Positions 29,419-63,020 of a stretch of DNA of 64,000 bases are shown in pieces. The translations under genes and the position numbers were made by a program. How positions within the stretch are numbered: position 1 is the first letter of the stretch; every line of letters starts with the position of its first letter. Location: the NCBI GenBank assembly GCA_044892525.1, contig CM097887.1, positions 47,616,001 to 47,680,000 on the forward strand, given 5' to 3'. This DNA comes from Schmidtea polychroa. Taxonomy: Eukaryota. The notes under the pieces were generated by a model that was not told where the DNA came from, did not search any database, and saw nothing but the letters and a program-made list of their open reading frames with translations.

Positions 29419-30486
29419 AATAAATTAACAGGCCACAGCTCCCTCCATGAATTTTCTCGACATTGGATGTGATCCATGATGTTTTTATCTATAATTTCTG
29501 TATTATCCTTTTGTAAATTCACCATTTAATAAATCGGTTTTGAGTAGATTCTTTGCGTTGTGCTTTGGTATGATTTTTCTTTTCTACATAAATGGTTGAT
29601 AAAGATCTCTGATAGTATGTGATGTGCTAGGACTTGTAACAAACTCAGAAGTGGTGTAGTGTCAAGTAGCGATAACGTAAGTAGACGTAAGCCCTTCTAT
29701 CGGCAGTCAAGGAAAGGAAGTCGAGGCCTCAGAAAGGAGTAGTCCTAAGGCAGGGGTTCACCTGCTTTCTGGCGTCTCGTCGGCATAATACAGGACCAAC
29801 ATGAAGTAATTCATGGGTATTATGTTGGAATACAGATTGTGTGGAGTCCTACTCCGGGTTGACAAAATTGTAGGCTATGTAAATGTAAGGGGCAATCATC
29901 CTCTAGACGAGACATCAAAATTGTTTAAGTCAACCGAGTAGCGCCCCAGCACTGCTTATTTTATATAAAAGATCTACATTTCCTTCATTTAAAAGAAAAA
30001 AACATCATAATGATGGATTCTGATAATTCAAGAATCTCGTTATAAGTTTGGAAAAATTCGTTAAAAGTTTCATTTAGTTCCATATTTGTCATTTCATGAT
30101 TTACAGAAATTAAATTCTTATTTTCTAAACCTCTAAATAAGATAATAGACCATTTATTAACACAATTGGGTGGAGAGGAGATGGCAGTGATGCAAGGTAC
30201 AATAAACTACCTACTAAAATACATTAAAATATTTTCAAAAACTTTATACAAATAAAAAAGATTGTCTCTCTTCCAGTTGTTAAAACTAATCTAAAGGGCT
30301 GAATAATTCTAATTACTTAATAAAACTTTCAAACAAAATACTCGAAATTATAAAAAAAATATTATTTAATATTTACAAAATTTAAACAAAAGACAAGAAA
30401 TTTCAAGAATAATTAGAATATAAAATCAAGTTGAAAATCTTTACATTCATTATCCAATTCATTAGATTTACATTTTGTTTGAATAG

Positions 30487-35403: not shown

Positions 35404-35487
35404 CATATATATTTAAAATTAAAAGTTTTTAAAAAATTTTAGCAATTATATATATTTTGTTTAAATAAATAAATATTGATTTTAAAT

Positions 35488-38606: not shown

Positions 38607-41600
38607 TGTTGCGGGTACACTACTCGGATGACCCCTTGTTAGTGCAACTTTAGTCTAGAGGATGAATGTCACCTCGATTTCGCCCATCATTTATTTGGTC
38701 ATCGCCGAGCGGGACCCGTACATAACTTACACTCCAACATAGCACCCGTGAATTGCTTCACGTTGGAACTGTGCTATGCCGGCGAGACGCCAGTAAGCAG
38801 GTGAGCCAGCTCCTTCGGACTACTCCTTACTGAGGCCTCGACTTCCCAACCCTGACTGCCGATAGAAGGACTTACGTCTACTCATTCCGTCGCCCCATCG
38901 CAATATTCCTAGCTGAGTTTACCAACTGATTAATGCTCCTCACGATTTCATGACTCTCAATACCATTTGCCAATTTCAACTCAACTGTCTTAAGATGAAC
39001 ACAAAGAAAAAAAAAGTATGCAGACAAATATGGTTTATTATTAAGATTATCAAACAAATATATCTAACACCTATACAATAAAGTTCACGACAACGGGAAA
39101 AGAGACAAGGTAAAATGTTATCAGACAATGTTCAGGTCAATTCAGAGAACGAAGGCTTTTTACGGGGAAGTTCTCATTTCTCCCACTCCGAGTCGGCCAA
39201 TAGATCTTCCAAATCGAAAAACTCAGAGGCGTTTTCCTCCCAGGTAACACCAGCGGCGGAGATGATTCGCCCTGAGATCACTGATGCTAAATCAATTGCT
39301 GCAGGAGGGTTGATGACTTTGATTGGATGATCCGACGATTGCTGGTTCTGTTTGGCGGTTATGCGTTCCCGCTGTTTCTTTTTGCGTTCGGCTCTCGATA
39401 ATTGCCGACGCTTTGGCTTCGATGCCGTTGGATTGATCGGGGGTGCTGCGGAGGTGGATGCTATCGCAGGTAGCACTTTACTGGTTCCGGTAAAGATGAT
39501 TTCTGGTCCTTTAGGTGAGAGCTCGGTCTCTACGCACCCATGGCAGGACTTTCCGACTGGAGAAGAAGATCCGCCAGAGATATCATGATGCGCTGGGAAA
39601 AGATTACTGGCTTCATTAATTGGGATCTTCGCGATCTTCCTTGTAGTTGCGGCCTGGACGTATAATTTGTACAGCGCCTCCGACTGCTCTTTTATCAGGC
39701 TCCTCTGCGCCCGACTCTCGGAAATCAACGCGTCTCTACAGTGCTCGCTTCGGTGCAGCTTCTTCTGAACCCCCTTCATCTGGGTGGGACTAAACCATGT
39801 CCCCTCCAACTCATCTATCCTTCTTTTGTGCTTTCCGATTTGGGCCTGGAGCTCTTTGATAATTGAATTCTTGTCGGAGCAAGAAAAACAAGGTCGAAGA
39901 ACGGTCTTGGAATTTGGCAACATTTTTGAGTGACTGTGAAAAAAAAATGAAAAGTGAAAATAATTAAATCAGCGGGAGTGTCACCATCTGACTACATCCA
40001 TACTGTACTGATCATAGACAAAAATATGGGTATACCAGTCCAGACAAGTTCTACTACGCGATGGATTCTCGTACCCTTTCGGGGCTTTAATTATAAGAAG
40101 ATAAATCGATCAAACCAGATTTCGCACAGGAAAAAGGAAGATATTACTATTTGTGAGAGAAATTCTAGGTCGATGAAAATGATTATTTATTTAATTCGCT
40201 TAGAGTCATTATTTCACGTTTACCGAGAATCGATTTAAATTGTCGACTTCTCCCCCCGTACGAGTGCTTTTAATGAGTGTATCATATACTGGGGGCGAGT
40301 GACTATCTATGGAAAAGGGGTCCATAATGCCTGTCGATTAGTTCCTACAGGATAAACGGAAGGTTATTTAAATTTTTAATTGTTTATTCATTCTCTTTAA
40401 TTACTCACATATGTGTTTTACCTGGTTTACATAATATTTATTTAACAATATTCGATATTAATATTAATGATAACTATGTCAAAAATTGAAATAATTTCGG
40501 TGCCATTCATGCTAAGATAATAAAGAGAGAATAATCATAATTATGATCGAGTTTATCATTAAAAATTAGTGTCTTTATAACAACTGAGCACGGTATCAGT
40601 GTGAGCTAGTAGTCGACCATACCTGCTGGGTAGATAAGGTAATGTCAGCCTAGTGATTGACTCTTAATCCGGAACGGTAAAATCTGATACCTGTCGGTAG
40701 TTTGATTAGTTAATAGAAATTCCATCTGGCATGTCCGGTCTGATTTTACATGATTAGAGACGGTGTGACTTTACCCACTACGCTTGGCTACTGTGTATGT
40801 CGGCAACTGGGTGACGCATGCAAGTTGCGTTTTCACACTCTTAATTATACCGATCGCTAGTAATGTAGGTTTTAAATGTTTGTATGCTGACATTTTCTCA
40901 GATTTTATCTACTGCGTAATCACTCACCATTCTCCTACGTATGGTGATGATTTACTAATTCTCACCGGATTATTGGAAAAATTAAAATTATCTATATTGC
41001 AAATGTTGGATACAGCCTGCTCCAAGGGTGGATTTTCCGTCTTTAATTCCTCAAACATAGTTTATCGAGCTACTCTCTAAGTGCTGGAGGATTTCTACCT
41101 GTCCCTGCTGGATTGCCAGCCCCCTGAAATACTGGAATTTTATATTTAATTAAAAAGATCCTCGGTTAACTTGAAGAAATATATTTTCTTGGCTCGAGTT
41201 AGTTGCATTTTTCATTTTTAAATTATTTGATGCCAATAGTTCGTGTAATTATGATAATTAATTATATGTAAATCCTTTCATATAAAATTCTAAAAAATTT
41301 ATGATAGCGAATCATTTTATGTAATTTAAACTTTTATTTGGAACAAACTCGTTTTATGCAATTCTGAATAACTATTTGGATTAAATCATTTTACCTGGTT
41401 CTACCATTTATTTACAAACAGTCATTTCGAGTAATCCTGATACTTGTCTGAAGCAATCTATTTTGAACTCCCTTGCAACTATATCTTTAAGAGAACTTTC
41501 AGACGAACGGAATAACCGTTCAGAAGGTCATAGGCTAAAAATTGGTCGGAACAGATTCTGAGTGAAAGGTATGGACATCAAAGACATGTCACAGATAGCC

Positions 41601-42748
41601 TCATCAAGGTTTGAACAATTTTTGACGCACAACCTACATTGATGATAGAGAAAAATTTTTCCTAGCAAACACGACATTCGAAAACGATAGTGTGGCACCC
41701 TCAATCACTGCGCGAATACATCCAAACCCTCCGATTCCTTTATTACATATCTTTGTTTTCAATCACTACATGACTATCAATTTTCTGCCACCATTTACCT
41801 ATAGATTTTAGTCGCACCTTCAGCAATTGGACCCGTGAAGAAGCCCTCACATTTCGGCCCAATCTAGCTGCGTGATTGAAATACCCTATGTCCACCGGTG
41901 GAGCTCCCGAAGGCACCTCACACCATGACATAGAGTATCTCAACGCCACGTTTCTCGCAAAATTGAATAGTCTCCAATAATAATTCATAAAAATTAATTC
42001 ATAAAAGATCAATAATTCTTAACGAGCAAATCATTTATTATCAAGCAAATTATTAATTTAAATAAAGCATTCTAAAATCAAACGAAAAGAAAAACCATTT
42101 TTTAAATTAAAAATATTATTAAACTATACGCATTACTTAAAAATTCAAAATAAGCAATCAAAAATCCTTACCGAATGATTGATACAAGTGTGGGCTGAGT
42201 CGAAAAGGGTACTATGTCGAATCAGTTAATGCTCGAATATCGTCTAGTTCTGTAAAAATCTCTTGAATCTTGGAATTGTCCTCGTGAGTTATCGTGCGTT
42301 AGTTGCTGGAGTTCTGTTCTGTCGTAGAATAGATTTACCTATTGAGGTGGTTTGATTAACAGTAATTGTTATGTTTTTAATGCCTGCTTATATATTAATT
42401 TTTTGTTTGCGCGGACCAATTAGAATTGAGTACCGCTTAATTTTATTAATTTAATTTATTTTCCTTGTTTTTAGTTATTTCTTCTTACTTTCTTTATTAA
42501 AATTATGTTTTTATTTATTTTCCTTAATTTTCTTATTATTTACTATATTTTACGTTGTTTTCCGCCATTCTATTGTCCTATTTTAATTTTTTCTCATCTT
42601 TATATTTTTTGTTTTAATTCCTATTTTCTAATTATTGTTTTTCTTATGTTTTATTCCATTTTGTTTGTCAATTTATTTGTTTTTATTTTTTTTTTATTTT
42701 AGTTAAGTTTGCCCTAATTTCTCAACTACCCTTCGATTCAGCCCAACA
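38607..42748 (-). mobile_element. 3' LTR, 4142 bp, TGTTG...CAACA termini
   Basis: Perfect 5-bp inverted termini; both ends homologous to the TSD-bounded solo LTR at 17851-29951; TATA at 42387-42394. Confidence 0.88.
39174..39923 (-). CDS. LTR-encoded 249-aa protein (EGTWFSP family)
   Basis: Intact; collinear with 28669-29418; acceptor TTTTCACAG|TCACTCAAAAATG; AATAAA near 39035. Confidence 0.85.
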   Translation of the reverse strand: MLPNSKTVLRPCFSCSDKNSIIKELQAQIGKHKRRIDELEGTWFSPTQMKGVQKKLHRSEHCRDALISESRAQRSLIKEQSEALYKLYVQAATTRKIAKIPINEASNLFPAHHDISGGSSSPVGKSCHGCVETELSPKGPEIIFTGTSKVLPAIASTSAAPPINPTASKPKRRQLSRAERKKKQRERITAKQNQQSSDHPIKVINPPAAIDLASVISGRIISAAGVTWEENASEFFDLEDLLADSEWEK

Positions 42749-42981
42749 AATCACTCGGGGACCCATCAAAATTGCGTCCCGCAATTGCATAGTTATCTTA
42801 CTTCATGCATTCATAAAAAGGATATATCGAAACAATTATACTACAATAACAAAAACAATTTTATTCTAAGATATAGGTCAAATCAAGACCAAGCAAGTAT
42901 CACTTAAGGTGATAGTTTGTATATACAATAAAAGTTTCTACATATGATAACCCCAATGTTTGAGTTAGAGTTTATGAACTG

Positions 42982-43641
42982 TTAACCATTTGATGCTTCT
43001 GCCGGCGGTTGTTGGTTGGTTTGGGTATTGATGTTGAGATAGGTCTGACTGTAAGAATTCGGCTGGATTGGTTGGTTACTCGGGATTCGAGGTCGGAATG
43101 GGGTTGGGTTAAGATTTGTCAGTGGCACTTCTTGAGGATTTCTGTTCGAGGTTACTCTTATTGATGTCGGGATTCTACATTTATTTCTAACTTCGTAAAT
43201 CTTCATGAGTATTGGTAGACATAGGAGGAGGGTTTCTGCGACCACCACATACATGAGATAATGGGTGTCATTGATTTCGGGAGGTGTTTTTGGCTTTTCT
43301 ACAAGATTTTCAAAATTCTCTTGTTGCATTTGTTGTTCTAACTGGTCGAATTGTTGGATTTGTTCGAGGATTTGTTTGTTTATCATTTTACAAATGGGAT
43401 TCTTTTTACACATTGTTTGGATGTTGTTGATGTGTGAACGGGTTGATTGAAGGGTTTGGATGATATGGATTTTTACTGTCATAGGGTATGTGCATTGGCC
43501 GGATTCTCGTTTAGGTTCTTGATTTTTATTTCGGTAATCTCGCACGATTTTCGGTTGGGCGTTTACTTGTTTGTTCTCCGTCAGAATCATCAATACCGTC
43601 ATTGTTATCATCATCTCGCCTCGCATGATACTATTATACAT
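42982..43641 (-). CDS. Accessory ORF5: predicted type I membrane protein (signal peptide, small Cys ectodomain, TM, Pro/Asn/Gln-rich tail)
   Basis: MMITMTVLMILT...VNA signal-like; YLMYVVVAETLLLCLPILMKIY TM-like. Confidence 0.7.
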   Translation of the reverse strand: MYNSIMRGEMMITMTVLMILTENKQVNAQPKIVRDYRNKNQEPKRESGQCTYPMTVKIHIIQTLQSTRSHINNIQTMCKKNPICKMINKQILEQIQQFDQLEQQMQQENFENLVEKPKTPPEINDTHYLMYVVVAETLLLCLPILMKIYEVRNKCRIPTSIRVTSNRNPQEVPLTNLNPTPFRPRIPSNQPIQPNSYSQTYLNINTQTNQQPPAEASNG

Positions 43642-43682
43642 TCATTATGGTTTATTTACAATTGGTTTTAGTGATCCTTAAT

Positions 43683-44444
43683 TTAATGATTCTGGTTTGG
43701 GTTATTTTCGGCGATTCTCATCAGGGTGGATTCCGCTTTAATGACTCTGTGTCTTAACTCGGGCAGCATTTCCAACTGTCTGTTCTTTTCACGGGCCTCC
43801 CTTTTCATGTGCCTTATCTCCTTTTTCAGTCTCTTAATTTCTTCCCGTTTTTTGTCGAGATTCCTTTTTAGTTCGATTTGTAGGAAATCTTGTTCGTTTT
43901 CCTGCGAAAGGTTTCGTTGTTGTTGTTGTTGTTGTTTTCTCTCGATCTCTTGGTACTTGCGAATCCATTTCTTCATTTCCTCACTTTCTCGTTGTTTTTC
44001 CTCCAATTGTCGATTTAATTTATTTATAGTTATTTGGTGTTCTTTCGCTTCTGTTTTCCAATAATCTTGGATTACTTCTTCTGCCTTGAAGCTTGCCCTC
44101 TCTTGCCATAGTTCCTCTGCAATCTTTTCCCAGTTTCTTCCTCGTGTTCGTTGTTCTTGCAACCATTCATTCTTCTCTTCAGCTTCTCTCTTTATTTCTC
44201 CTAACGCTTCGCACTCCTTCTTTAGTATTTTAATCATTTTTCGGTCTTCTATATATTTGTTTATTAGTCTCTCGTTTTCGTCCCTCTCTTCCCGTAACTT
44301 GGCCTTTAACGTTTGTGTTTCTGTTGTTTCTGCCTCAATCTCTCCCTCTTCCACGTCGCTCGTAATTTCTATTATTTCCTCGATTTTCATATCTGTAATA
44401 TGTACAGTTAATGGTGCGCTATAGTGCGACTTATACTTATGCAT
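43683..44444 (-). CDS. Accessory ORF4: coiled-coil protein of unknown function
   Basis: 253-aa open frame, E/K/R-rich heptads, same codon bias as the polyprotein; likely start MKIEE after TTACAG. Confidence 0.7.
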   Translation of the reverse strand: MHKYKSHYSAPLTVHITDMKIEEIIEITSDVEEGEIEAETTETQTLKAKLREERDENERLINKYIEDRKMIKILKKECEALGEIKREAEEKNEWLQEQRTRGRNWEKIAEELWQERASFKAEEVIQDYWKTEAKEHQITINKLNRQLEEKQRESEEMKKWIRKYQEIERKQQQQQQRNLSQENEQDFLQIELKRNLDKKREEIKRLKKEIRHMKREAREKNRQLEMLPELRHRVIKAESTLMRIAENNPNQNH

Positions 44445-44557
44445 TTATATAAAATTTTAATAGTTCGGGTTACAGTCCCTTGAATACTTTTACAATACTT
44501 TAATTTTTTTGTTTGGGATATACGTCCCGATTTTTGTTTTTATCTTTTTATTCACCC

Positions 44558-45613
44558 TTATACGAAGGTTTCCTCCTGTCCCACATAACCTTCGTCACTA
44601 TCGACCGCTGGATGCAGCTGTATCGCAATAGGGTCATAGGGTAGGTAATATTGGGGGATTTGAGCTCTCAATTCACTAACTTCGTCTCTTAGAGCTCGAG
44701 TGATATTCAGCTCTTCGTCGAGCAGATAAGTGAGATACCTTGTCTCTTCGTCTTTCGCCTCTACTTGTCTATCTAAGGCCTTGATTTTCTCGTCGCCCTT
44801 CCATTTTTCAATTTCTATTTCCAAGTTTTTGATATTTTCGGTATACATTTTCCTCTCGTTTTCTAATTTTCTGTTTTTTCCCGCTAGGACCATGTTTCTT
44901 TGTTCTAACGATCCTTGTAATCCATTAAGGTCTCTTTTCATCTCTTCGACCTGATTTACTAATTCCACAATCCGTCCTGCTTGTTGGGTTATCATCTCTT
45001 CCATTGCGGCATTCTCGTGCTCTCTTATGTCGCATTTTATTGCCAAATGTCGCTCAAATTCCATAGCCTTTGTTTGCCAGGTTTGACTTCGGGCGGCGAC
45101 CTTTCTCAACCGTTTCAATTCTTCCTTTATTATTAAATTCTCCTCCCATTTGCCCTGTTCGCTCTCATATCCGAGTCTCATGGGCAATTCTTTCATCTCT
45201 TTTTTCATTTCATTGCTTTGTCTTTTCCATTTTCTCGCTTCTGCCACTAAGTGCATCATTTTCCTGTCTTCTATTTGTTTTTCCGCTTCGCGCTTGGTGT
45301 TCTCATCGGTAAGTCTCTTTCTCGCTTCCTGCACTAGCTGCTTTAAGTAGTGGCTGTGTGCTTCTTGGCGGGTATTTTCTAGTGACGCCCATTTTGATGC
45401 TCTTTTGCATGCTTCTGCTTCCGCTCTTAAGTTGTGTATTAACCATTGGTATTGACTATTCTCATCTTCTCTAGCTTCTTCGATGTGATTTCTGGTGAGA
45501 TTAGTTAGTTGGAACATTACTCTGTTCCATTTTTTGTTATGTTCTCGGGGAATTTGTGTCTTGTTGACATTGGTTGGGGCTATCGCAGTTTCGGTTAGTT
45601 TCTCTTGTGTCAT
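44558..45613 (-). CDS. Accessory ORF3: 351-aa coiled-coil protein with acidic/aromatic tail
   Basis: Long open frame with heptad pattern; tail YYLPYDP...DSDEGYVG. Confidence 0.72.
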   Translation of the reverse strand: MTQEKLTETAIAPTNVNKTQIPREHNKKWNRVMFQLTNLTRNHIEEAREDENSQYQWLIHNLRAEAEACKRASKWASLENTRQEAHSHYLKQLVQEARKRLTDENTKREAEKQIEDRKMMHLVAEARKWKRQSNEMKKEMKELPMRLGYESEQGKWEENLIIKEELKRLRKVAARSQTWQTKAMEFERHLAIKCDIREHENAAMEEMITQQAGRIVELVNQVEEMKRDLNGLQGSLEQRNMVLAGKNRKLENERKMYTENIKNLEIEIEKWKGDEKIKALDRQVEAKDEETRYLTYLLDEELNITRALRDEVSELRAQIPQYYLPYDPIAIQLHPAVDSDEGYVGQEETFV

Positions 45614-45806
45614 CTCTAAATCATAGACATCGATTAATTTTTTTATTATGAAAGAGGAATTTATTCATTATTTACTGTTTCTTGGGAAATTTTCGCATCA
45701 TTTTTGGGTTTTCGTATTTAGGGTTTTCATACTATTATTATATAATATTTTATTGGTTATATACACCGATATATACAGATTATTATATACAACATTATTC
45801 GATTGG

Positions 45807-47195
45807 TTACTCCGTTCTACCCTTCTCCTCTTTCCTCACGGTCATCTTGATATACACCGTGTCATTTCTTGCCATATCTTCTACTTTTTGTTGTAGGATG
45901 AATGTAGGTGCTCCTGTTGCTGATCCTTCTTCTGCCGTAGGTCTCTGGTAACACATTTGGTTTCCAGTTGTCTTGAAGCTTTGTTCGTGGATGCTTCGGT
46001 CATTCATTAGTGCAATATCGATTTTTGCCTGGAACGGCCACTCTATTATTTCGTCGTATTCCCCTTTACATAACAGAAAGAAAATCGAAAAGTGCGTATC
46101 TAATCCGGTTCCGTCCCCGTTGGGATATATCTTCATTTTCATTTTGTACCCATTTTTCCAAGAATGGAATGCAGGACTTGTTATTCTTGTCTCTTCTCCG
46201 GTTTTTGCTTTTCGTATTCTTTCTTTTACTCCCGTTATTTTCCATATGTAGGGTGCTGTTGGGGTTATCTCATTTAGATTTATTTCCCGTATTTTCTGAT
46301 GTAGCTCCTTGGCCTGATTATTACTGATTTCTATTCGGTTTATTTGCATCTTTATGTTTGCTCGGGCTTCTTCGAACGCTTCCCTTTCTTCTAGTAGTTC
46401 TTTGACTAACACTTTCAACGATGTTATCTCTATCTCCATTTGTTTTACTTTCTCTTCGCTTTCTTGTAACGCAGTCGACCACATTTCTGCGTGGGTTGAA
46501 GCATTTTCTACTAAATGATGTGGTAACTCACCTCGGTGTAGTAGTTTCTGACAACCCCATCTACCTAGTACACATGTCATTCTTTTCTTTTCGCATTCCC
46601 TTAGATGCTGTGCCACCTTCATTATTTCCCCTTGGTTACATCCGTTTGGGCATTCCCCACTGAACTCTGCACATACTCTCTCCTCTTGGACATTGTGATG
46701 TTTGAGGGTGAGATTTTTCCACGTATCTATTTCTCCACAGTGTTCACATCTTTCCAATCTCTCTTCACACTGCCTTTGATGCTCTTTTTCTTCGCTTGCT
46801 CGAATGGTTTTATGGCACCTTTCACACTGGCCAATTCTGTACATACATTCTCCCATATGTTGTACTACCTTCCATATTACTCCTTTCCATTCGCATGGGG
46901 CATTTTTGCATCCCAGGTTGGTGTTTAACATGTCTTTCACTGCGGCTTTATCCTCGTTAGTGTCTTCTAAACTCGATATTAGTGTCTCTTTACACACCGG
47001 GCACCTCTGTGGTCTATTCTTTATTGCTTCACTGATACATTCTTTACATACTCTGCATCCACATTGCGTTTGGTGAGGTTCCTTTAACAACTTTTCACAT
47101 ATTCCGCACATAACATGTTTGTGTATTCTGATCGTTGTAGATTTTCGGACTTGCTCGACAATCTCTCTGAACTCTTCTCTTTGTCGTTTATCCAT
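45807..47195 (-). CDS. Accessory ORF2: intronless full-length TRAF homologue (RING, TRAF zinc fingers, coiled coil, MATH)
   Basis: CGIC..LL.EP.QT.CGCRVC..C...CPVC; several CxxC..H..C fingers; MATH motifs YIWKI, SPAFHS..GYKM..KIYPNGDG.G..TH.SIFF...KGEYD....WPF. Confidence 0.93.
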   Translation of the reverse strand: MDKRQREEFREIVEQVRKSTTIRIHKHVMCGICEKLLKEPHQTQCGCRVCKECISEAIKNRPQRCPVCKETLISSLEDTNEDKAAVKDMLNTNLGCKNAPCEWKGVIWKVVQHMGECMYRIGQCERCHKTIRASEEKEHQRQCEERLERCEHCGEIDTWKNLTLKHHNVQEERVCAEFSGECPNGCNQGEIMKVAQHLRECEKKRMTCVLGRWGCQKLLHRGELPHHLVENASTHAEMWSTALQESEEKVKQMEIEITSLKVLVKELLEEREAFEEARANIKMQINRIEISNNQAKELHQKIREINLNEITPTAPYIWKITGVKERIRKAKTGEETRITSPAFHSWKNGYKMKMKIYPNGDGTGLDTHFSIFFLLCKGEYDEIIEWPFQAKIDIALMNDRSIHEQSFKTTGNQMCYQRPTAEEGSATGAPTFILQQKVEDMARNDTVYIKMTVRKEEKGRTE

Positions 47196-47280
47196 TCTAT
47201 AATTATATGTACAAATAGTTCTTATCGATACAGGTTCGATATTTTATTTACAATTATTTACATTTTAAGCTAGGTTTGGT

Positions 47281-47640
47281 TTAGGGTTCGGAAGAGTCGG
47301 CTTCGTGTCCGCTCTCCTCTCTATTCATTAGCCATTCCGACCAGTCTTCTATTTCTGTCTGTTCTGCTTCCTCCATCATTCTGTCTAGCTCGATTTCCTG
47401 TCTACGGCTATATTGGGTTATCCTCTCTATCTCTCTTTGCATTTGTTCGATTTTCAACCTCTGGTCTTCAATTATTTTCAAATAACTAAATCCTCTATTC
47501 ATACTCTCGATTAGGTTTCTGTGCATCGTCAATCCTTGTTCTTGCAAATTGGACACTAATTGTGCTAATACGGCACATTGTTGCTTCCATAATTCTTCAG
47601 TTACTGTATTGTGGTTCATTTCGTTATTTCCTTGATCCAT
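47281..47640 (-). CDS. Accessory ORF1: ~119-aa coiled-coil protein with acidic Trp-containing tail
   Basis: Likely start MDQGNN (47640); tail EIEDWSEWL. Confidence 0.6.
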   Translation of the reverse strand: MDQGNNEMNHNTVTEELWKQQCAVLAQLVSNLQEQGLTMHRNLIESMNRGFSYLKIIEDQRLKIEQMQREIERITQYSRRQEIELDRMMEEAEQTEIEDWSEWLMNREESGHEADSSEP

Positions 47641-47800
47641 TCTTAATTTATATACACTTTTCAACTCTTATTTAACTTTAATTTTATTTTATGATTCCCG
47701 TTATTGTATAATATTGATACCGCGCTTATATAAAGATATAGTACTGTTGTATACATAAGATATACTTACTTTTTACAATTATATACAGTCATATTCCTTT

Positions 47801-50800
47801 CTATATACGTGAGTTTGGAGGGCGCTGAGCGTTCCAGGCCTCCACCCACTGTTCTTGTTTGATATCACTTGGTCGTTTCACTCGATGTTGGAAATTTCTG
47901 ATTCGGGTCATCTCTAGTTCTCCGCGATGTCGTTTATCTTTAATTATTTTTATTGTTCCCCCTGTTATGATTAGGAAGGCCCCTGTTATTATTATCCCAC
48001 TGATCCACATCATCTGCTTCACGCTTATATTCTCTGGTTTCTCCTTGTTCGTTAATGTTGATATCGCTTCTGTACCTTGCTCGTTTCCTCTTTTGCCATT
48101 TCCTTTCATCATTTCCCGTATTCTTGCTATTTCCTCGTTCATACCCTCCTTTGCCATCTTTTGTATTTTTTCCATCTCTTCCTCCGAAACATAGTTGTCC
48201 TGAGCTTCCTCACCGGTTTTCTTGTGCTTTCCTCCTTCGTTCTTTTCGTCGTGGTTTTTTCTTTTCTTTCCTCTTTTCCCCGGGTATCGTCGGCATTCTC
48301 TTTTTGATTCGTTCCTCCAGATACAAACCGTGTATTCTTTCGGCGGCTGCTGCTGCGTCACATATTGATGGCATCTCTCACCTGGTCCTAATCTTGAAAT
48401 ACAGACTTTGTGCTCTTTTCTAGGTTGGAGCTGCGTTCTTACTACTTCACCACCTTTTCCTAGGTGTACCTCTTTTCCTTTGACGTTCGTTATTCTCTTC
48501 CCGTCTCGATTTCGGTATGCTTCTTGTATTCTTACTTCTGTTATTGGTTCTGTGTCCTCATTTATCAGTACTAGTTTCTGGTACGCTCTAGACATGCATC
48601 TTCCTAGTATGCACCTTTCCTTTAAGTCCCATTCTTCCTTTAAATCCCACTGCTGCTCTTGTGCTTGCTTTTTCTTTACTTGCTTTAGTTCATCCTCTTT
48701 GCTATCTTGATTCTCCGCTTCTTTGGTTTCTTTTATCGTTCTCGTCCCTCCCTGAGCTGTTACTAACTCTATCATGGTAAGCATAATTATCATTAATATC
48801 ATGTTTGTCTCTATTTCTTTGTTAGTGAAAGGTAGGCATACCCTCTGTTTTCCATTATTCGATTTTTCCTCCTCTTTGGTCTTGGTTCCCGGCCTGTTTC
48901 CCTCTCTTTTCGTATCCAAATCCTTGCTTTCCGGTTTATCCTCTTCCGGTTCTCTTTTCCCTTTATCCTCTTTCCGGCCTTTTCCATCATTGTCATCGTG
49001 TTTATCTCCCCCGCTGTCATTTAAAATGTCGTCCTCGACATTTATATCGTTCAATAATCTGCGATATGCTGTTAGCACTCTGTTTCTTGCTAATTTTGCT
49101 TCGAATTCAAACTCTTTTCTACCCGTTGCAGCATGTCTCTTTCTATTCCATTCTTTAACAAACTCTCTCAATTGCATACGACGATGTTTCCCAATTCGTT
49201 GTTGCTCGTTCTGATTTTGCGTGAATTTTAGGTCTTCTCTATTTAATACTATTAAAATAATTTTAGGCGTCCCCCCCTTAGTTAGGGTATTCTTTACCAT
49301 CGCATTTTCTCCGTTTTCGTAGAATTCGTTTACATTTATCGCATATTTATTATTTTGTGGTACTCTCCAGGTTAATAATAATTTCATTGCTTCTAGATTT
49401 TTCCGTACCGTATTCCATTGAAACTGAGATGTGTTTTTGCACATATTTTCAACTTCTTCTTTTGTCGCATTTTTGCAAATAAATCTGATCATTTCTAAGT
49501 TTGGCTGTATGGTTGCCCAGTCCAAGGTGGAATTTCCTTCATTGGACCTTTCGTCTAGTTTCGATCCTGATTGATGTAGGATGTGGAGTGTTTTTGGGTG
49601 TATTTTCGTTATAGCTGCATACATCATGGCGGTTTCACCTTGTTCATTTTTCGTGTTGGTTTCCTCGCCCATCTCCCCAAGGATTCTCATGATCGTTATT
49701 GCTCTATTCTCTTTTGCAGCTAGTATTGCTTGTTGTAGAGGTGTTCGGGAATCCTTTGTTACCATTGTAAATGCTCGAGGCAAGAAGGTTTTGATTTTCC
49801 CGATATCTAAACCCGTGGTTTGATCTCTTGCGTATGTGTGTACGGCTTTTATTATTTTGGACAATATTATTTCGTCTGGCAGCTCTAGCATTTCCTCAAA
49901 GAACACTTCTTTTGCTTTGCGTATTATTGCCTCTTGATCTATACTCATTGATTTTGTTTCAATGACGTGGTTTGTGACCGTTTGGTTCGTTGTTGACTTT
50001 GATTCCCTCGGTTTCTCATACCTTATTTTCGTTTTCTTTCCGTTTGGATTATTGATTCGTTCCTCTGCTGTAAGTATTTGGATAATATCCAGGTAATTCT
50101 CGCGGATGTTATTCATTGTGTCCATCATATATAACACGCTTACCGTTTCCCAATATTTATTTCGTACTTGGTTAGTAAATTGGAATATTGATTTTTCGAA
50201 TGTGTCAATTCGCTCTTTTAATAACTGCTCATCTTTATGATTTGTGAATTTTATCCCTCGTTCTACTAATTGGTTTGGGATTTCGAATAAATGATGTCCT
50301 TTCATGGCTTCTCTCATAAGCGTGTTCTCTCCTCTCGTGAATGCTTCGTTTACGTTGATCATATAATTATTTTTAATTGGGTTTCTCCAAGTGATTAATA
50401 CTCCTGTAATTGTTGTCAGTTTTTCTTTGATCGCTGTTAATAATCCATCATACATGTTTCCGACTTCTCGATTGTCCTCATATGATAGTAGTTCCATCAA
50501 TGACGTGAACGCCTCGGTACTTTTCCCTTCGATAGCATGATGTAGTGCGTTTTTCCGCTCGTGGTCTTGTGTAGTTATTTTCGATCCAGTATCGAGTAAT
50601 GCGGTTATAACGTCTTTTGTTTTGCCTCTGTTTGCGGCTATCATTAATGGTGTGTAACCTTGGTTGTTTGTTTGTTCTGTTGATCGCTTGCAGTCGTGAA
50701 ATGCGTCTATTGTTTCTAGTATTTGCTCGTTGTTACCTACTTTCATGAGTTTGTGTAATGGTGTGTCTCCGTAACGATCTGTTATTGTAAATAATATTGG

Positions 50801-53800
50801 CCATTGGCTTTTGACTACTCGCAATAATGGGTGTGTCCTTTCTCTATTTGCATAGTTCTCGATCATCGTCAATAATCCTCCTAATATTTCGAAATCTAAT
50901 CGATCTTTTGCCCATCCAGGTATTTTAATTTTTACCTCTTTTACAATCTTTTCCGCTTCTGATGGTTGGATACCTAATCGTCCAGTGATCGGTTCTGCGA
51001 GTTGTTGCATCATGTTCATTCTATAGGTTTGCGAACGTGTGGTTAATGTACGGCCTTCTGGTTGACTAGTGGCTGTTTTTGGAATTGATTTGCATCGTGC
51101 CACGTTTACGTATATTGGCCTGGTAAAGGGGTTATTTACCAATTTCACTCTTACATTAGTTTCGCCTACGAATAAGATCTCATATGGTCCTTTTCCGTTG
51201 CGTTGTAACTTTTTTGTGGTTCCTGGAATTAATTCCGGGGTTTCTATCATTACCCAATCACCTGTTTGAAACGTATGTTGCTTCACGTTTTTCTTTCGAT
51301 CGTGTAAATCTTTATAACTTTCCTGGTAGAACTTGATATTTAATCCCGCAGTTTCCCAAATTTCTTGCATTCTTTCCTTGAATTTCGTAACATAATCATC
51401 GATCTCCATATACTGCGATATCGGTGGTTGGTATTCCAGGTCCATTGGCATATTACATTCTCTTCCGTACATTAATTTGAATGGGCTCATTTTCGTTGAT
51501 GCGTGAATCGACATTCTGTACGCCATAAGACATAGGTTTATATATTCGTCCCAATCTCGTTGGTGACGGTCAACGTAGTTTGATAACATTTGTATAAGTG
51601 TTCCATTAAATCTTTCCGTCATCCCATTGGTTTGAGGGTGGTATGGAGATGTTCTTAGTTTTGCTATTTTGAAGTAATTTGTTACTTCGCTCATTATCTC
51701 ACTCATAAAATTAGTTCCCTGATCGGTTAAGATTTGTTTTGGTGTTCCATATCGGCAACATATCTCTTCTACCAAAATTTTTGCGATTGTTTTAGCTTTT
51801 TGGTCTGGCATCGCGAATGCTTCTGGGAATTTCGTAAGAAAGTCTGTGATCACTAGAATGTAAACGTTTCCTCTATCTGACTCTGGTAGTGGACCAACTA
51901 CGTCCATGGATATCATTGTCATTGGTTCTATTGGTACTGGCATTGGCGTTAAAGGTGCTTTCCATTTCGATCCAGTATTCTTCCTGGTTGCACAAGTTAG
52001 ACAATTTTTTACCCATTCGGTTACATCTTCAGTTAACGTAGGCCAAAAATATTTCTGTTTCATTCTTGCTAACGTCTTTTTCGATGACATATGTCCTCCC
52101 AATCTCCCATCGTGATATTGCGTTAGTAACTCTTTTCGTCGGTTTTCAGGTATACACATTAATCGTTTTTCCCCATCCATTATCAGCAACCAATCTTTCT
52201 CTATAATATATCGGTGTCGGTGTTTATCCATATGTTCTTTTAATTTTTGGTCTTTCGCATATACATCTGTCTTTCCGGTTTTTACATAATCGATAATTTG
52301 TTTTAATTCCGCGTCCTCTTGTTGGTCCTTTCGCAATTGACAGAAATCCAAATCTTCCGCTACTATTAAGCATATGCGTTGCATTTCTGAATCCACCAAA
52401 TCTGGGAAAATAAATCTTGACATACAATCGGCGTTGGCATTTGCTCTTCCCGCTTTAAATTTTATAAATGGGGAGTATTCTTGCAATTGCATGGCCCATC
52501 TCATCAGTCTACTGGACGCTTCTTTATGTTGCCCTAACCACACTAATGGTTGATGATCTGTGGTTATACATATCTCATGTCCCCATAGTAAGTATCGGAA
52601 GTGTTTGATAGCTTGTATTATAGCCAATGCTTCCCGTTCTGTTACCGAATAGTTCTTTTCGTGCTTTTTGAATGTTCGACTGTAATACCCGATTACTCTC
52701 TCTTTTCCTTCATCATCTAATTGTCCCAGAATCGCGCCTGCCGCGTACCCGCTTGCATCCGTTGCCAATAGAAATGGCTTCTTAAAATCTGGGTGTACGA
52801 GGATAGGTGCTTCGATTAGTTTATCTCTCAGCGTTTCGAACGCCTGTTGTTGTTCCTTCCCCCAAATGAACGAAATGTCCTTCTTTACTAATTCCTGGAT
52901 TGGTTTTGCAATTCCTGCATAATTTTTGATAAATTTGCGATAGTATCCGCATAATCCTAGAAATTCCTGAACTTGGGTGACAGTTTTCGGTGCTGGACAT
53001 GTTTTTATTTTCTCAATGTTTCTTGGGTCTGGCTCCTTTCCTTTAGCTGACACTATGTGTCCTAAAAACGTGACTTTTTCCTTTGCCCAATCGCATTTCG
53101 AAGGTTTGAGCTTGAGTTTCCATTGTCTTAATCTAATAAATACATTTCGGATATCCTCCAGATGTTGTTCGAATGTCGCTGAATAGATTAGCAAATCATC
53201 AATATATACCATACATTGTTTGATTCCATGCGTGACGAAGTTCATACACCTTTGAAATGATGCTGGTGCGTTGGTCAGTCCGAATGGCATTTTTCTGAAC
53301 TGATATAGATCTCGTTCCAGCGTGAAAGCTGTTTTCTCTTTGTCCTCATCTTTGACTTTAATCTGCCAGTATCCACTTTTTAGATCTAAAGAAGTAAAAT
53401 ATGCTGCCCCTTGCAACATCAATAACATTTCATTGATGTCCGGCAATGGATAGGTATCTCTCTTGGTTACTGCGTTTAACTTCCGATAATCGATACAGAA
53501 TCGTTGGGTGCCATCTTTCTTTTTTACCATGACCACTGGGAATTGCCAGGGTGAGCAACTCGGTTCGATTACTTTTGCGTCTAGCATCTTTTGTACTTCT
53601 GCTTCGGCTATTTCTTTTTGCATTTCTGCTAGCTTGTATGGTCTTAATGCAATTGGAGTTTCATCTATGAGGGGTATTGCATGTAGGGTAACATCGCATG
53701 TACCCAAGTCTAAATCTGAGATGGCGAATATATCTTTATATTCTACCAACAATCGGTGCAATTTTTTCTTTTCATCATTCGTCAACAACATACTATCTAT

Positions 53801-56800
53801 TGTCCATAATTCATCATCTTTGATCATCTCGTTGGTCACTTTCGGTAATTCTATGTCCATCATTGGGGTCAATCTTCCCAATTTTTCGTTCTCATAAATG
53901 ATTTTGTCTTCCTCTTCGAAATTCGTGATGTTGAGTGGTATCACTCCTTCTTGGTTTATTGTGATTATTTCTCTTGCGAGTGGTAATTCTCGTCGCTTTT
54001 CAAATGACTTGCTTGGTTCAAAGATAACTTCTCCTTCCATACCCGTATCCACTTTTATCTGACAAATCATCTGCGATTTTGCTGGTACTATTATTTTTTC
54101 TGGACATCTGATGACTACATTCATTTTGCATATTCTACCGGTTTTGTCTTTTAAACACATGGTTGTTAAGTCAATTACGACTTCTTTTAACAATTCTGGC
54201 ATCAAATCCGTTCCGATTATGCATGGTACGCTAAGTTTTGGTATTACTGCCAAATACGTTTCAATTTCGTTGTCCTGGTATCTCAATGTAGTCCACCATC
54301 TTCCGACCACGTCCACTGTTTCTTTACTACATGCTATGATGTGAATTGTTGTTGATTCGATATCCTTCCAGTGTTTACTGGGGATTTGATTAATCGCTAT
54401 CGCTGATACATTAGCTCCGGTGTCTATCATAGCATTGGTTTCTTTACCATTGATTTGAATCATAACTGTTACTGCTGGACCTCCAGGTAAACTCATCGCT
54501 GCTATTGTTCTTACGTCATCTGCTTGATCTACACTTTTGGTACGTCGTGTTGGCATATAATGCATACCGGGTTGACTTGGTAATTGCGGATACATATTTT
54601 GTGTCATGGTCAAAGCTGCTTGTGGTCCCGCGATATCCGGTGGTATGTAGCTTCCATTGGCGATCCAGGTATTTGTCTTTTCCTTCTCCCAATATGGTGC
54701 CGTTTCCATTGGTTTTTCGTTTGGGTTTCTGTTTGGATATAGACATTTATCGTTCCCGTTATCATCGTCGTCACTATCGCTGTTAGATGATTGGCTTCTA
54801 AATCGGTCCAAGAATTTTGGCTTATTCTTTTTCAATTGTCGTCTTGTTGCTTCATCGTACATTACTTTCCGGAATCGTCTGCCTACTTCCTCGTCGGTTC
54901 CTTTAATCTTTGTTAATATTTTAATCAATCGCTTTATCCGATGAATGTCTTTTGAGTGACCATGTAATACCATGGTTTTAGCTAAAAATGGTAGAAAGCC
55001 TACTATCATTTTCCAATTTACTTTCTTTTCTCGCTTGTATATATCAAAACACGCTAACATTTGTGTTAGTATTACTCTGACTATCTGAATTATGAGTATG
55101 ATCCCTAATATCCCGGCCATCATTTGTCCAAAAACCAAGAATCTTCCCCACATTGCTTTCATCATGTTTGATGTGGCTTGTTGAAAATGGTCTGGCGATA
55201 GTAGCAGCTCGTAATTCGGGCCTGATTGATAATTTGTTCCCCCCGTTATTGTAACCATATTTGACAAAATGGATTCTCGTCTGGCTGGAAAGAGTACGTT
55301 AAGTCGTGCTGTTTCTAGATCTTCTGGGGAATACATACCGCCGTTTGACACGTCTATAGGTTTGAAATCCAGCTCTGTGGCGAGTTCTATTAATCCAAAT
55401 TTCTTGGGCTCCTCGGATATGGTTTTTCCCGGTAACATCATCCATTTCCCATCGGGCCTTTCATATAAAGGTCCGTATGCATTAGAACAGTTAAAGAGAT
55501 TTGGGTAGAAACCCACTGGATTCATAATTCTAGTGACTGGTTGGACGAATCGATTTTGTCCTTTATAACGGATTTCTAATTCATTTGCACATCTCTTTTC
55601 GGGTAGTATGGATTTTTCTGGCATTCGTGCATACGTCTTGGTACACTGGTATGTGTACATCACTTCTCCTACCATTCTACCAAAATGTCCGTCTGGTAAT
55701 GGGAGTGATGGCATCGCGTTATCTGGGTGTGTTATCGCAATAGCTAGCTTTGTTTTCAATATTTCTTTATTCAATGAACAATCGTTTTGTATCAGATCGT
55801 AATATACTTTTTGCAAGGTCGTTTGTCCGCGATGAAATAGAAAATCCATTTTATTATTTGCATATAAGTATAGTTTTACGTCCTCCGTTGCTATCTTTCC
55901 CACTGCTCTATCGATTATTTGTCTCGACATATAGATGCCTGCGTAATTGGTTTTATATACTATACTGTCACATTTGGTGGTTTCTTTTTCTTTGATAAAT
56001 CTCATACCTAGATCGGGATCGTCTGTGATTAATGCTGTTGGTGTCTTCTGCGTTGAAAGTCTCTTTTCTCTGGGAGATGGTGGCATTGGTTTTCCATTTC
56101 GCATTCTCACTCTGTCGTTTCCATCCTCGTCGTTCTCGTTCTCATATATTTCTCCTTTTACTTCATTGAACAAAGCACTTTTTAACAGTTGGAGTCGGCA
56201 TTTTTGGGTATTAGCTTCATAGATTATAGTTGATACTCCTGTCCTACATACGTTTTCTGTAGCTCTACACGCTGGGTTGGTCTTCATTTGGTAATTATTT
56301 GCGTCAAATTGCGCTTCGTATTCCTTTAGTTCAACCGTATAGGACTCAATCACTACTACCCCCGATATTACTTCGCCTCGGATCGTATACGTACCTCCGT
56401 TACATGACCCATCTGATGATTTTACTTTTCCGGATACGTAAACGCTTTCGGTTTTAATCATTCCAGTTTGTCCGTGAATCGTCACTCCGTTATGCATTTT
56501 TAGCGCTCCGGTTCTAAATAGCTCTTTACAGTCCTCTCGTTGTATTGATACGATTTCTTTATCCAGACCAGGTAGTATAAGAGTCGAATACGAATATTGT
56601 CCACAGTAATATGCGAGTACCTTTTTTGATACCACGCATTCCCTTGCTTGCGTTCTGATGAAATCTGATTCTTGATATACATGGTAAGTAACTTTTGTTC
56701 TTACTATGTCTAATTTGTTGGGTGATGCTTGTCTGCATTCTTCTATGTCTCTCAACGAGTATTTATCTCTCATTATCATATTATCACAATCGTAGATGGT

Positions 56801-59800
56801 AAAACCTGTTGCTCCACTTGTGCACAACATCCATATCATCATAGTCATCATTAACGAATTTATCGATGCTTTTCGGCTTGCTGGGTCTTTCATGGGTAGT
56901 TCCCATTCTAGTTCATTCAACAACTTCTTCAATCTAACTTGCATCGACCTTTCTTGCTCATTTTTTCGTGGCGCTTGTATAAGTCTTTTCCATCCTCCGG
57001 CACGAATAATATGTGGTTCAATAGTATTCTCTATGATTGAAACGGTCATTTCCACATGATTTGCAAATTGTTTATTTGGTATTTTCCTCGCAGCTAGTCC
57101 CATCAAATTATACATCAAATACGTGATTACCACTAGATGATGTTCGTCATCATTTGCATTTGTCGTGAGCAGTTCAATCACTCTCTTCGTTTCATCCCAA
57201 TCCGTTTTGGTGGTTTTCGTTTTCTCTTTGATTAACTTTGGGATTATCCCCGAAACGATGTGCCATAATTGTCTAGCTTCCGTACTGGCTACTTTCCGTT
57301 GCCACAAACGTCTAAGTTGTGGGTTTGTTATTATTAACATATCTTTGATCAATTCTCGTATCCATTTTTCTCCTCTTTCGATCGTTGGTTGGGCTTCCTT
57401 TAGATCCCATACTATTTTATCCAATTTTTCTAATCGAACTTGCCCTTGTTCTTGCTTTAATTGTTCTTTGGTTTTAAACTCAGACTTTTCTCCTTGTTTC
57501 TTAGGTCTTCCTTTTGCCCGTTTTTCCATCATCGTTCCGGCTTCTCTGGTATTTTCGTAATTCGGATTTCTTTCGTTATCCGTTCTGGGTAATGAGCTAT
57601 CGTTATTTCTTAGCCACTCATTCCATTCATCTATTATTTTATCGGTTTGACCTTCTGGTGTTACTTTCGTTGGTTCTCTTTGCTTCTGGAATTGTTCATC
57701 CGTTTCGGTTTCCGTAGTATTGTCGATGATTTCTTTGATGTTTAGTTTCGTTGGTTGTTGATAACTCGTTGATGGCTGGTTATTAGTCCACATTTCGGCT
57801 CCTGTCGGCCATCTTACTAATAGCGGTGATCTTTCTCCTGGTTCATCGTCACTATCTTCCAGGATTATCTCTTCAACTTCTTCAGTTTCATTAGATTTAC
57901 TTGGTGCTTTGTTCGGACTTGGAGTACTCAAACTGCCTTTTGTTAGTTTAGTAATTTTACTTTTCCTTTTTAACGGCTTTCCCAACGTTTCTGCCATTGT
58001 TAACACATTTGTCTCTTCCAATCTCATGGGTGTTATTCCGACGTCTGCATTATCGTCTAGTGATTTTCCGAATAGTTGCAGATGGAATGGAGTTTCATAT
58101 GCTAATTTCTTTTTTAATTCTCTAATCTTTGTTGTTGGATGCACCTCTAGTTCCTCGATGCTCTTGTCCGGATACTTGATTCGGATGTGATACCTCTCCT
58201 GAGTGTCTTGTGCCCATTCCTGATTTCTCCATTTTCGAATAATTTGTTCTAGCTGTTCTGGATACCATTCATTATATTGCCGGTATTCCTCTATTGCCTT
58301 TGCCATTCCTCTCAGATTGTGGATGTTCTCTGATGTCTTTAAGATGATGTTAGCCAACGCTACTACTTGGCGTTTTTGATTTTTCGCTCCCATTGCTAAG
58401 ATATCGCCTAATTGTTTATATCTTTCTGTCTCTTCTCGTTCTCTTGCTTCCGTCGCTTCCTCGCCGTCCATATCAGCATATTCACGTTCCTTTTTCCTCA
58501 TTGCATGAATATGTCTCGCTTCATTTTCGCTTTCTGATGTGACATCCGTCTCGCTTTCGTCATCTGATGTCTGTCCCCTTGCTTCCTCTTCATATTCTGG
58601 GGGTTCCTCTTCTTCTTCCTCCGATTCACTTTCTGTCTCACCAATGTCTGTTTCTACGAAGATTCCTTTCCGGATTTCCCATTCCTTATTTTCTGCATTC
58701 CACACTCTTTCCCATGGGGTTCGTCTGCAGGATCTGGTGCTTAATTTCGTGATTTTTCCTTGTAGTTCTTTTTCTTTTAACCATTGTTGGTGGATTTCAA
58801 TTATTTCTGTAGATTTTTGATATAACGTTTTCATCCGGTCTCGTATTTCTTTTTGATAGATTACATCTCTTGTTCGAAATACATCCATTGGTACTATCCT
58901 GATGATCTGATGATTGTCCCACATACCCAATTCGCTTAACGAGGTGTCGTCTTCTGCTCGTAATATTATTTTATCGTACATCAGGACTACATCATCCACC
59001 ATACCATCACTACTTTCGCTACGTACCTTTTCCGTTATCTCTTGGTTTATCTTTGATACCAAGTCATCCACTGTACTCCGATTGCTCATTTTTATTCGTC
59101 GTTTTTCTTCGTTCGGTAACCATATGGTTATTTCCAACCTCTGTGGCTGGGTTTCTTTTAACCTTCCATATTTGTGGATCAAATTTATGGTTCTCCAATC
59201 ACTCATCCGGAGCATTTCTGTATCTCGCAATCGGCTCATTAGTTCGTACATGGCTGGGGCTCGTCTAGTGATGAGTAATTCCCAGTTGTCTTCTACTTGT
59301 TCTTGAATTTGTTTGATCAGTTTATCCAGGTTTCGTCTCAGAGTACATTGTTTTATTTGTTCTAATTTCAATTTGATATTAAAATCATATTCTGCCTTGG
59401 CATCTTTGGCCCAATCGTAAAGGTTGGCTGGTTGTTTTTCTTTATGCAACTTCAGTATTTGCGTTTCTCCTGGCCATATTAGTGCATCTACTAAGTGCAT
59501 ATCTGGTTTGATCTGTTCTCCTTGGTATTGATACAGATATTCTTTCTTTCTCGAACTTCCCAAATGTTCTCGTATCCAATCGAAAAGTTCGTCAGTGACT
59601 GTATTTTTTATCCACATTCTTTCAAGTCCTCTACTCGTTCCGATTTTTATTACATACCGCGTGGTATCTGCCTGCTTCATTTTTTCCATATACTTTTTTA
59701 TAATTGATTTTTCCTCGTTTGGTATTAAATCTTTCTCGTTTCTTTCCAGTTTCATCACTTTTTGCACGAATCGCCTGAATGATATTACGTCGATGAACTC

Positions 59801-61654: not shown

Positions 61655-63020
61655 GATTGGTGTTCTAGATTCGTCTGTTTCTTTTAAATTGTCTAACGAT
61701 GTGACTAAACTTTGGGCTGATAATTCCTCGGTTGGCGTTGCTAAACTATTAGTGATGTCGGACAGACTTTCTCTGCTTCGAGATCGACTAGGGGTGTCTC
61801 CGAGATTTTCTTGGTCAAATATAGGTACTTGATTGGTTCTTCTTGATCCTTGCGATATTCCTCTTTGCTGTTTAATAGATCGTCCTCTTTTGAGTTGTTG
61901 TAATTCGTCTCCTGAAAATAATACGTCTCCTGGCTTACTTGAAGATCTAAGATTGGGTTTATCCGTGATTCCTTTCTTACGCTTCTTGGTAATTAGCGGC
62001 TATTGAATTGGACGAGTTCGGTTCTGATTGTGTTTCCTTCGATAAATATTCTGTATGAATCTGCTACTGTGATTCTGAGGAGATTTACTAGTCCTTGACA
62101 GATGGCTGCTAATATTATGAGGTTGAATATATCGATGATTCGTTCGAAGTTGGAGATGTCGCTATCTGTATCTTCTTCCGTTCTGGAGTCTTCCGGTTGC
62201 TGTGCCTCTCGGTGCGGGTTCTGAATGAATTTATTCTTGGTCGATTGTCGATTTCTTCGAATTCCTTTTGTGCAGGTTCTGGATTGTCTTGGTTGACTGG
62301 ATTGGTTTGATATCTAAAATGAAAAAATGATCTCGTGTTGCATTTGCTTACACGACTTCATCATTCTTTCAACAACGTTCGAACACAGACACCTTTTAGG
62401 TTCTGTTTATGCTTCCCCTATTTTTTATGCAATTACTTCCGCGGGTTATAATCTCCCATCAGCCCGAATTTTTCGTCGATTTTAAATTATCTATATGGGG
62501 TAGTAACAATTATCTATCAAGTCGTAACAATTATCTATTCGTTATCAATTATAGTAAAAATAGGTCGTTGTCGGTCTCTGCTTATTACCCCCCTTCGTTT
62601 TCTTATTCCTTTTGCGCTGTTGTCGCTATTTTACTTTTCATATTTACTATTATTACGCTCGGTTCTACTCTGGAACCAATAAAATGCATTTTCCCGGTTT
62701 AACCAAAAAAAATATTCCGTAGAGTTTCTCTACTTCACTGGGATCCCTTTAATTAGTTGGTTACTTTCCTCTTTACTCATTATCATCGTTTCGCCTATTC
62801 TTTATTTTCCATTATCTCTTTAATTCGTTTCCTTCTTCCCTTTTCCTTTTTCATTATAATCTTATTATCTTTTCCACGAGCTCGTTTATTTCCTCTCTAA
62901 ACTCAAATTTTTGTAATTACATTCAATTTGTTTCTAGCTAGCTTTAATATTCCCTTTCTCTATTAATTCAGATATTAGCTCATTGTAGCTTAACTGCTAT
63001 CTCTCGCTTTTCTAGGCCTT

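Follow-up and report, generated by a model that had tools for sequence, protein, structure and literature searches.

Pumilio-type UGUAHAUA words at two preferred positions in the spacers of the accessory gene array of a giant Gypsy-type element from Schmidtea polychroa

We analysed a stretch of 64,000 nucleotides of the Schmidtea polychroa genome (NCBI GenBank assembly GCA_044892525.1, contig CM097887.1, positions 47,616,001 to 47,680,000), which is referred to as the window and in which position 1 is the first letter. Its minus strand carries a giant Gypsy-type element, whose 3' end is an array of five accessory frames, and the spacers of this array are packed with the 8-mer TGTAHATA (UGUAHAUA in RNA; H is A, C or T). 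In our judgement there is about an even chance that these spacer sites represent Pumilio-type response elements on separately made accessory mRNAs, which a host PUF protein would bind and dampen. The ten positions at which an original prediction, made from the letters alone, had placed the word all hold an exact match on the minus strand, and AATTGTAAATAAA is identical at 47243-47255 and 43651-43663, as had been claimed. The spacers and their sites, with distances counted from the neighbouring stop codon or ATG, are the following.

Spacer 1, 47641..47800, (-): sites 47780-47787 (14 nt after the stop) and 47649-47656 (16 nt before the ATG); near-match at 47748-47755, free-standing TATATAAG at 47732, AATAAA at 47688.
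Spacer 2, 47196..47280, (-): sites 47255-47262 (19 nt after the stop), 47245-47252 (29 nt after the stop, overlapping an AATAAA) and 47206-47213 (18 nt before the ATG).
Spacer 3, 45614..45806, (-): sites 45784-45791, 45770-45777 and 45758-45765 (16, 30 and 42 nt after the stop); AATAAA at 45754, two-mismatch TGTCTATG 16 nt before the ATG.
Spacer 4, taken to the second ATG of the following frame, 44391..44557, (-): site 44399-44406 (16 nt before the ATG); AATAAA at 44552, TATATAAA at 44451, A7 run (44504-44510) at which one contig terminates in additional As.
Spacer 5, 43642..43682, (-): single site 43653-43660 (23 nt after the stop, 19 nt before the ATG), overlapping an AATAAA.
Terminal spacer, 42739..42981, (-): site 42920-42927 (55 nt after the stop, within a palindrome); AATAAA at 42865.

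The suggestion that the word occurs far above chance was upheld by the shuffle test. The sense (minus) strand of 820 nt of spacer contains 10 copies, compared with 0.51 expected from dinucleotide and 1.30 from trinucleotide shuffles, and none of 3000 shuffles of either kind reached 10; the opposite strand of the same 820 nt contains 1 copy versus 0.17 expected (469 of 3000 shuffles). TGTAHATA is the commonest 8-mer with one degenerate position in those spacers, and in a look-elsewhere test the best such word containing G or C attained at most 7 copies in shuffles and never 10 (0/300). The enrichment also holds relative to a matched AT-rich background, since the density amounts to 12.2 per kb versus 0.21 per kb (6 in 29,250 nt) in AT-matched 150-nt windows outside the element, i.e. 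about 60-fold more; the AT content of the spacers is 68-78% and not 80%, as originally assumed. An eleventh site (44399-44406) precedes the second ATG (44390) of accessory frame 4, and counting it as spacer is an after-the-fact choice that depends on this second ATG. If it is included, all six spacers are hit and 11 sites are found in 889 nt, compared with 2.6 in shuffles preserving 4-mers (0/2000); the split between the strands is then 11 sense to 1 antisense. With the motifs masked, none of the 15 spacer pairs aligns clearly better than shuffles (best pair 15/200), and the accessory proteins show no BLAST match to each other. We therefore rejected shared descent of the spacers, and the word has been gained or kept separately in each of them.

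The spacer copies follow the Pumilio response element (PRE) definition, UGUAHAUA with H at position 5 (PMC4995099). Within the spacers, 11 of 18 TGTA words continue as HATA, compared with 17 of 394 outside; the whole 8-mer matters, not UGUA alone. Position 5 is T in six, A in three and C in two of the 11 sites and never G, and just five one-mismatch variants occur. Taken together, an exact 8-mer on the sense strand of non-coding sequence with AU-rich flanks fits the PUF code well, as the original prediction had proposed. Features of Nanos sites are near background, with AAU before 2 of the 11 sites and U at position -1 in 5 of them.

The sites occupy two preferred positions. Eight of them lie 14-55 nt after a stop codon, and four lie 16, 18, 16 and 19 nt before an ATG, the spacer-5 site belonging to both groups; the fifth frame has the two-mismatch word at 16 nt. 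That four of the eleven keep a constant distance of 16-19 nt to a following ATG had been overlooked by the original prediction.

The array stands downstream of a single huge open reading frame (ORF1), on the same strand, with 41-193 nt between its genes. The order of domains in ORF1 is a Burro-like layout when compared with the excerpted description of these elements (PMC6431247).

ORF1, 47801..61654, (-): 4617 aa, with, in this order, gag, CCHC knuckles, a mononegavirus-type fusion glycoprotein (env), protease, reverse transcriptase (RT), RNase H, integrase and ankyrin repeats.
Accessory frame 1, 47281..47640, (-): 119 aa, without Pfam match.
Accessory frame 2, 45807..47195, (-): 462-aa TRAF with RING, zinc fingers and MATH.
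Accessory frame 3, 44558..45613, (-): 351 aa, without assigned family.
Accessory frame 4, 43683..44390, (-): 235 aa from the ATG at 44390, or 253 aa from the ATG at 44444; without assigned family.
Accessory frame 5, 42982..43641, (-): 219 aa, without Pfam match.
Start of the candidate 3' long terminal repeat (LTR), 41800..42738, (-): begins TGTTGGG, with a TATA-like box of its own and a donor-like GT, without TGTAHATA; its lower end is not fixed.

Because the accessory frames lie behind a frame of 13.9 kb, each of them would need its own shorter mRNA. Such sub-genomic mRNAs would most likely be made by splicing onto the AG beside each ATG, either in cis, with a donor close to the start of the LTR, or in trans from a spliced leader. 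The stop-proximal clusters would then lie in 3' untranslated regions (UTRs), in which proteins of the Pumilio type recruit deadenylation and repress translation, and the start-proximal sites would serve as 3' UTR sites of the message of the upstream gene. Both the AU-rich flanks and the repetition of sites would strengthen this repression, and stronger repression with AU-rich flanks has been reported (PMC11602169). Since stem cells and brain are where planarians express Pumilio (PMC1896013), TRAF and other cargo might be kept low or timed there, which the element may need in order to persist. When smedwi-2 is lost, BURRO1 RNA turns up chiefly in differentiated cells (PMC8532177), a pattern that fits an extra brake in stem cells without showing it.

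Further evidence comes from other copies of the element. We aligned contigs of four runs (of 12 listed) to 42500-48100 at an identity of at least 80%, which yielded 79-298 contigs per run; two of the runs, X1 and X6, are RNA by guess only, and X6 bins that lacked cover did not enter the evidence. Contigs aligned at many identity levels, i.e. the element is multi-copy. Among ten relatives of TRAF, organism names were attached to four, three of them triclads, which makes a planarian host probable. Among the best 15 of 18 joints, nine re-enter a spacer after skipping coding sequence, three lie inside TRAF, one lies in the LTR, one skips part of the terminal spacer together with its AATAAA, and one, discussed below, skips a whole spacer. 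In diverged contigs a 36-nt block with the site at 42920 and a 30-nt block with the site at 45758 re-align, and one contig stops following the reference at 45793, two bases beyond the cluster of spacer 3. A difference at 47749 turns the near-match at 47748-47755 into a full match in all four runs. Conservation across copies, on which the original prediction had wanted its case judged, was thus seen for blocks that contain sites. For the sites themselves, beyond their flanks, the listed differences are too few to show it: ten were listed in the spacers (three substitutions and seven insertions, out of lists covering 40 of the 1343 substitutions and 12 of the 79 indels), none of which falls in a site, and ten misses of the 11% of spacer that the sites cover have a chance near 0.3.

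This lack of site-level support weighs against Pumilio-type response elements, and so do several other observations. One listed joint skips the whole of spacer 3. In spacer 4, a diverged copy retains a block of 106 nt (44415-44520) while the coding sequence on its flanks does not align, and this block holds a TATA-like box without a full site, so that the spacers hold other conserved signals. The sites are predicted to be less open than their surroundings (unpaired probability 0.26-0.67, compared with 0.41-0.70 elsewhere in the spacers), and no spacer piece folds better than its shuffles (z -0.02 to -1.1). The word is absent from 18,009 nt of sense coding sequence, but this depletion is not significant (0 vs 1.24 expected, 91/300). 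Some sites are only 10-14 nt apart and may be local duplications, and, going by the title of PMC12262702, PREs on a viral RNA need not matter. Finally, the Pumilio model does not account for the fixed distance of the start-proximal sites to the ATG, which has a probability of about 0.004-0.008 under random placement of the observed sites, with a correction for how the distance interval was chosen; such spacing would not be required of a plain 3' UTR element. In addition, an AG ends at most 2 nt from the ATG in four of the five frames (P 6e-4, for a feature defined after the fact), the candidate acceptor words being TAAG, TATAG, TTTAG and TACAG. Offset and AG together point to a role at 5' ends.

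A possible though doubtful alternative is that the motif is a directional 5'-end signal of the accessory mRNAs, read by a non-Pumilio factor. It would either be placed just upstream of splice acceptors, for cis-splicing or for trans-splicing of a leader, or belong to short internal promoters, so that the likeness to PREs would be incidental. Besides the offsets and the AG, this could explain why a contig of 86% identity spanning spacer 1 keeps TTAAGA-ATG while the following codons differ, and TGTAAATA, which we take to contain a Forkhead-type site, also counts in its favour. Flatworms do have spliced-leader trans-splicing and operons (PMC12582326, PMC8629364); no spliced-leader-like end was recognised among the best 24 of 292 loose contig ends. 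Against this alternative, seven of the 11 sites follow a stop at 14-55 nt with no ATG close by, and diverged contigs skip the stretches that contain the start-proximal words of spacers 3 and 4. The acceptors also lack the T-rich tract that is found at acceptors in the leader of the element; T-rich acceptors there and donor-like GTs in the candidate LTR indicate that splicing signals are present in the element.

As to promoters, free-standing TATA-like boxes lie at -92, -131 and -61 in spacers 1, 3 and 4, with none in spacers 2 and 5, and 5 of the 11 sites overlap TATAWAW. At the start-proximal sites, TATAWAW lies 12-14 nt from the ATG in spacer 1 and is missing in spacers 2 and 5. We rejected these sites as TATA boxes, since with a box 14 nt before the ATG transcription would begin beyond that codon, yet the first Met of TRAF aligns with the first Met in 4/4 close relatives. 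The candidate LTR promoter lacks TGTAHATA, which also counts against a 5'-end signal. The planarian Initiator, TTTGTTTAAATA with a nearly invariant G-T-T-T, is called putative and was scored with its published matrix (PMC10558129, including Table S3). All 11 sites score below 0 bits (-0.3 to -15.8) and were thus rejected as Initiators, and the highest score in the 200 nt ahead of each accessory ATG is below zero as well. Two intronless RING-finger frames elsewhere in the window, (+) with ATGs at 30487 and 35488, have Initiator matches of 13.0 and 14.1 bits at 30474-30485 and 35456-35467, i.e. 13 and 32 nt before the ATG, the first of which runs directly into AG-ATG; start-proximal promoter words therefore exist in this stretch.

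It is unlikely that the sites act at 3' ends instead, as UGUA-type upstream enhancers bound by CFIm, which the original prediction had offered as a second reading, or as a signal specific to the element by which each accessory mRNA would be terminated in the spacer after its stop. An AATAAA is found in every spacer and overlaps a site twice, and one X6 contig ends in a tail of 13 additional As (sense strand) at 44504, at a distance of 36 nt behind an AATAAA. This contig abuts a genomic A7 run, however, so that internal priming is possible; it is one contig from one run and lies in spacer 4, the sole spacer without a stop-proximal site. AATAAA itself is not enriched in the spacers (8 vs 5.75 expected, 597/3000), and contigs cross spacers 1 and 4, although contigs do not show single transcripts. 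The preference for HATA described above constrains the four bases that follow TGTA. CFIm is not known to need a constraint beyond UGUA. Poly(A) sites of S. mediterranea have, in the excerpted report, neither an upstream UGUA nor enriched octamers (PMC5068929), which weakens the CFIm reading further. A neutral origin, in which slippage at TA-rich stretches and duplication over short distances would have produced the words within AT-rich spacers, seems very improbable to us. In its favour, TGTATATA resembles a TA repeat, the sites of spacers 2 and 3 show the close spacing mentioned above, and the window as a whole also exceeds its shuffles (32 vs 12.5). Such an origin is hard to reconcile with hits in 6/6 unrelated spacers (product of per-spacer chances 1e-4 with 4-mers kept), with the bias towards the sense strand, with the 60-fold excess over AT-matched windows, and with three different letters at position 5 combined with fixed ATG offsets.

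Regarding the remainder of the element, the candidate 3' LTR (start near 42738) has a partner of 73-81% identity at about 17850-18880. Burro elements are bounded by two long LTRs and exceed 30 kb in total; here, no direct repeat was found between the ends of the element inside the window, and its 5' end lies beyond the window. Accessory frames 2-5 look selected as judged from 21 synonymous and 10 non-synonymous changes among 31 listed substitutions, which were selected by support and of which one third would be expected to be synonymous. Atlas matches of frames 3 and 4 were dropped because of low recognition values, and a homologue sought for frame 4 was not found, so that its start (44390 or 44444) is not fixed. 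Ubiquitin- and apoptosis-related cargo of the Burro type is represented by the TRAF frame and by a RING frame upstream at 63885-63998, whereas a BCL2-like part was sought and not detected and a ubiquitin-like part reached an E value of 0.075 only. With TRAF, its alignment and the integrase as queries, no related locus with an accessory array was found in viral contigs or prokaryote genomes, and metagenomes yielded two short gypsy loci, which end at or just after the integrase and lack an accessory array. An Rfam scan of 41500-48200 gave no match.

Several further features were noticed in and around the element. Upstream of ORF1 (61655-62330, minus strand), T-rich acceptor-like words lie near 62319 and 61917 and donor-like GTAAG words near 61938 and 62351; by eye, the frame of ORF1 is open upstream of its ATG at 61654, so that a spliced N-terminal extension of the polyprotein may exist. 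An inverted match of 18 nt, also seen by eye, links the candidate 3' LTR at 42077 (+) with the leader at about 63695 (-). The roughly 36 nt directly before the candidate LTR start (42750-42786), at which one would look for a polypurine tract, are not purine-rich; this block opens with a short inverted repeat and is common to many contigs with differing flanks and loose ends on both sides (summed depth 5076, X5 bin). One X6 contig ends in 12 extra plus-strand As at 42815-42819 (+), a weak hint at antisense RNA out of the LTR. C3HC4 RING frames (Pfam zf-C3HC4_3) occur at 63885-63998 (-), upstream of the polyprotein, and at 8145-8627 (-) in a related element, and are presumably of the IAP type. 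Short matches connect this related element (about 3800-11300) with the leader, and it carries TGTAAATA twice on the same strand (8980-9011). At 21655-27434 (-), a frame of 1034 aa encodes a non-LTR-type RT, with broken frames upstream, and adjoins a run of N (about 21151-21367).

Planarian genomes are full of Burro elements, which bear many accessory genes as well as apoptosis and ubiquitin cargo, and the question is how those genes are expressed. The spacers offer a short exact code in the form of an established RNA-binding word that favours two positions. Should Pumilio bind this word, the cargo of a mobile element would have been tied to a stem-cell regulator of the host, which would add a layer of control beside piRNA silencing; if the word marks 5' ends instead, it shows how a retroelement resolves an array of five genes.

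The 8-mer and the Burro family are each known already (see also PMC11410931), and their combination was not met among the matches listed. Likewise, the literature among these matches, with subscription journals not covered, contained no Pumilio sites in Burro and no work on the expression of accessory frames, and the excerpted Burro review (PMC6431247) holds nothing on spacer signals or on accessory-frame expression. With Burro/GYPSM1, the giant Gypsy elements of planarians described there, the element shares the single huge frame with gag, an in-frame env before the protease, RT, RNase H, integrase and ankyrin, and in addition the TRAF cargo, the accessory frames and the many copies. TRAF is a downstream accessory frame here, whereas it lies inside ORF1 in S. 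mediterranea and upstream in D. tigrina (PMC6431247). CERV, an accessory gene of the C. elegans element Cer1 (PMC10309623), is made from a spliced sub-genomic RNA; like it, the extra genes here lie behind pol and would need an mRNA of their own, for which the AG beside the ATG is a candidate acceptor. Unlike in such complex retroelements, five intronless frames stand in a row and a common 8-mer occurs in every spacer. Other routes to the expression of accessory genes are the splice acceptors of HIV and the internal promoter of foamy viruses.

With trans-spliced operons of flatworms the array shares same-strand genes 41-193 nt apart, inside the 300-nt cut-off, and an AATAAA followed by an AG; in contrast to these operons, the genes belong to a retroelement and the acceptor words are not YTNCAG (PMC12582326, PMC8629364). 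It is conceivable, if improbable, that the array represents an operon within a retroelement, in which one transcript would give rise to five mRNAs via poly(A) addition and spliced-leader trans-splicing at the AG, and in which a PUF word per spacer would let Pumilio set which cargo message is made and how long it lives. With the PRE and the hunchback Nanos response element (NRE), finally, the sites share the exact 8-mer with H at position 5, the repetition of sites and the AU-rich non-coding sequence, and hb NRE2 (AAUUGUACAUAA) is matched by the twice-present AATTGTAAATAA except at position 5 (PMC4995099, PMC11602169). The linkers within the clusters, at 2, 4 and 6 nt, are shorter than the 8-12 nt reported to act most strongly (PMC4995099, PMC11602169). 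The sites described here, which are predicted from sequence, differ from these elements in that they lie between the genes of a mobile element, four of them at a fixed distance before a start codon.

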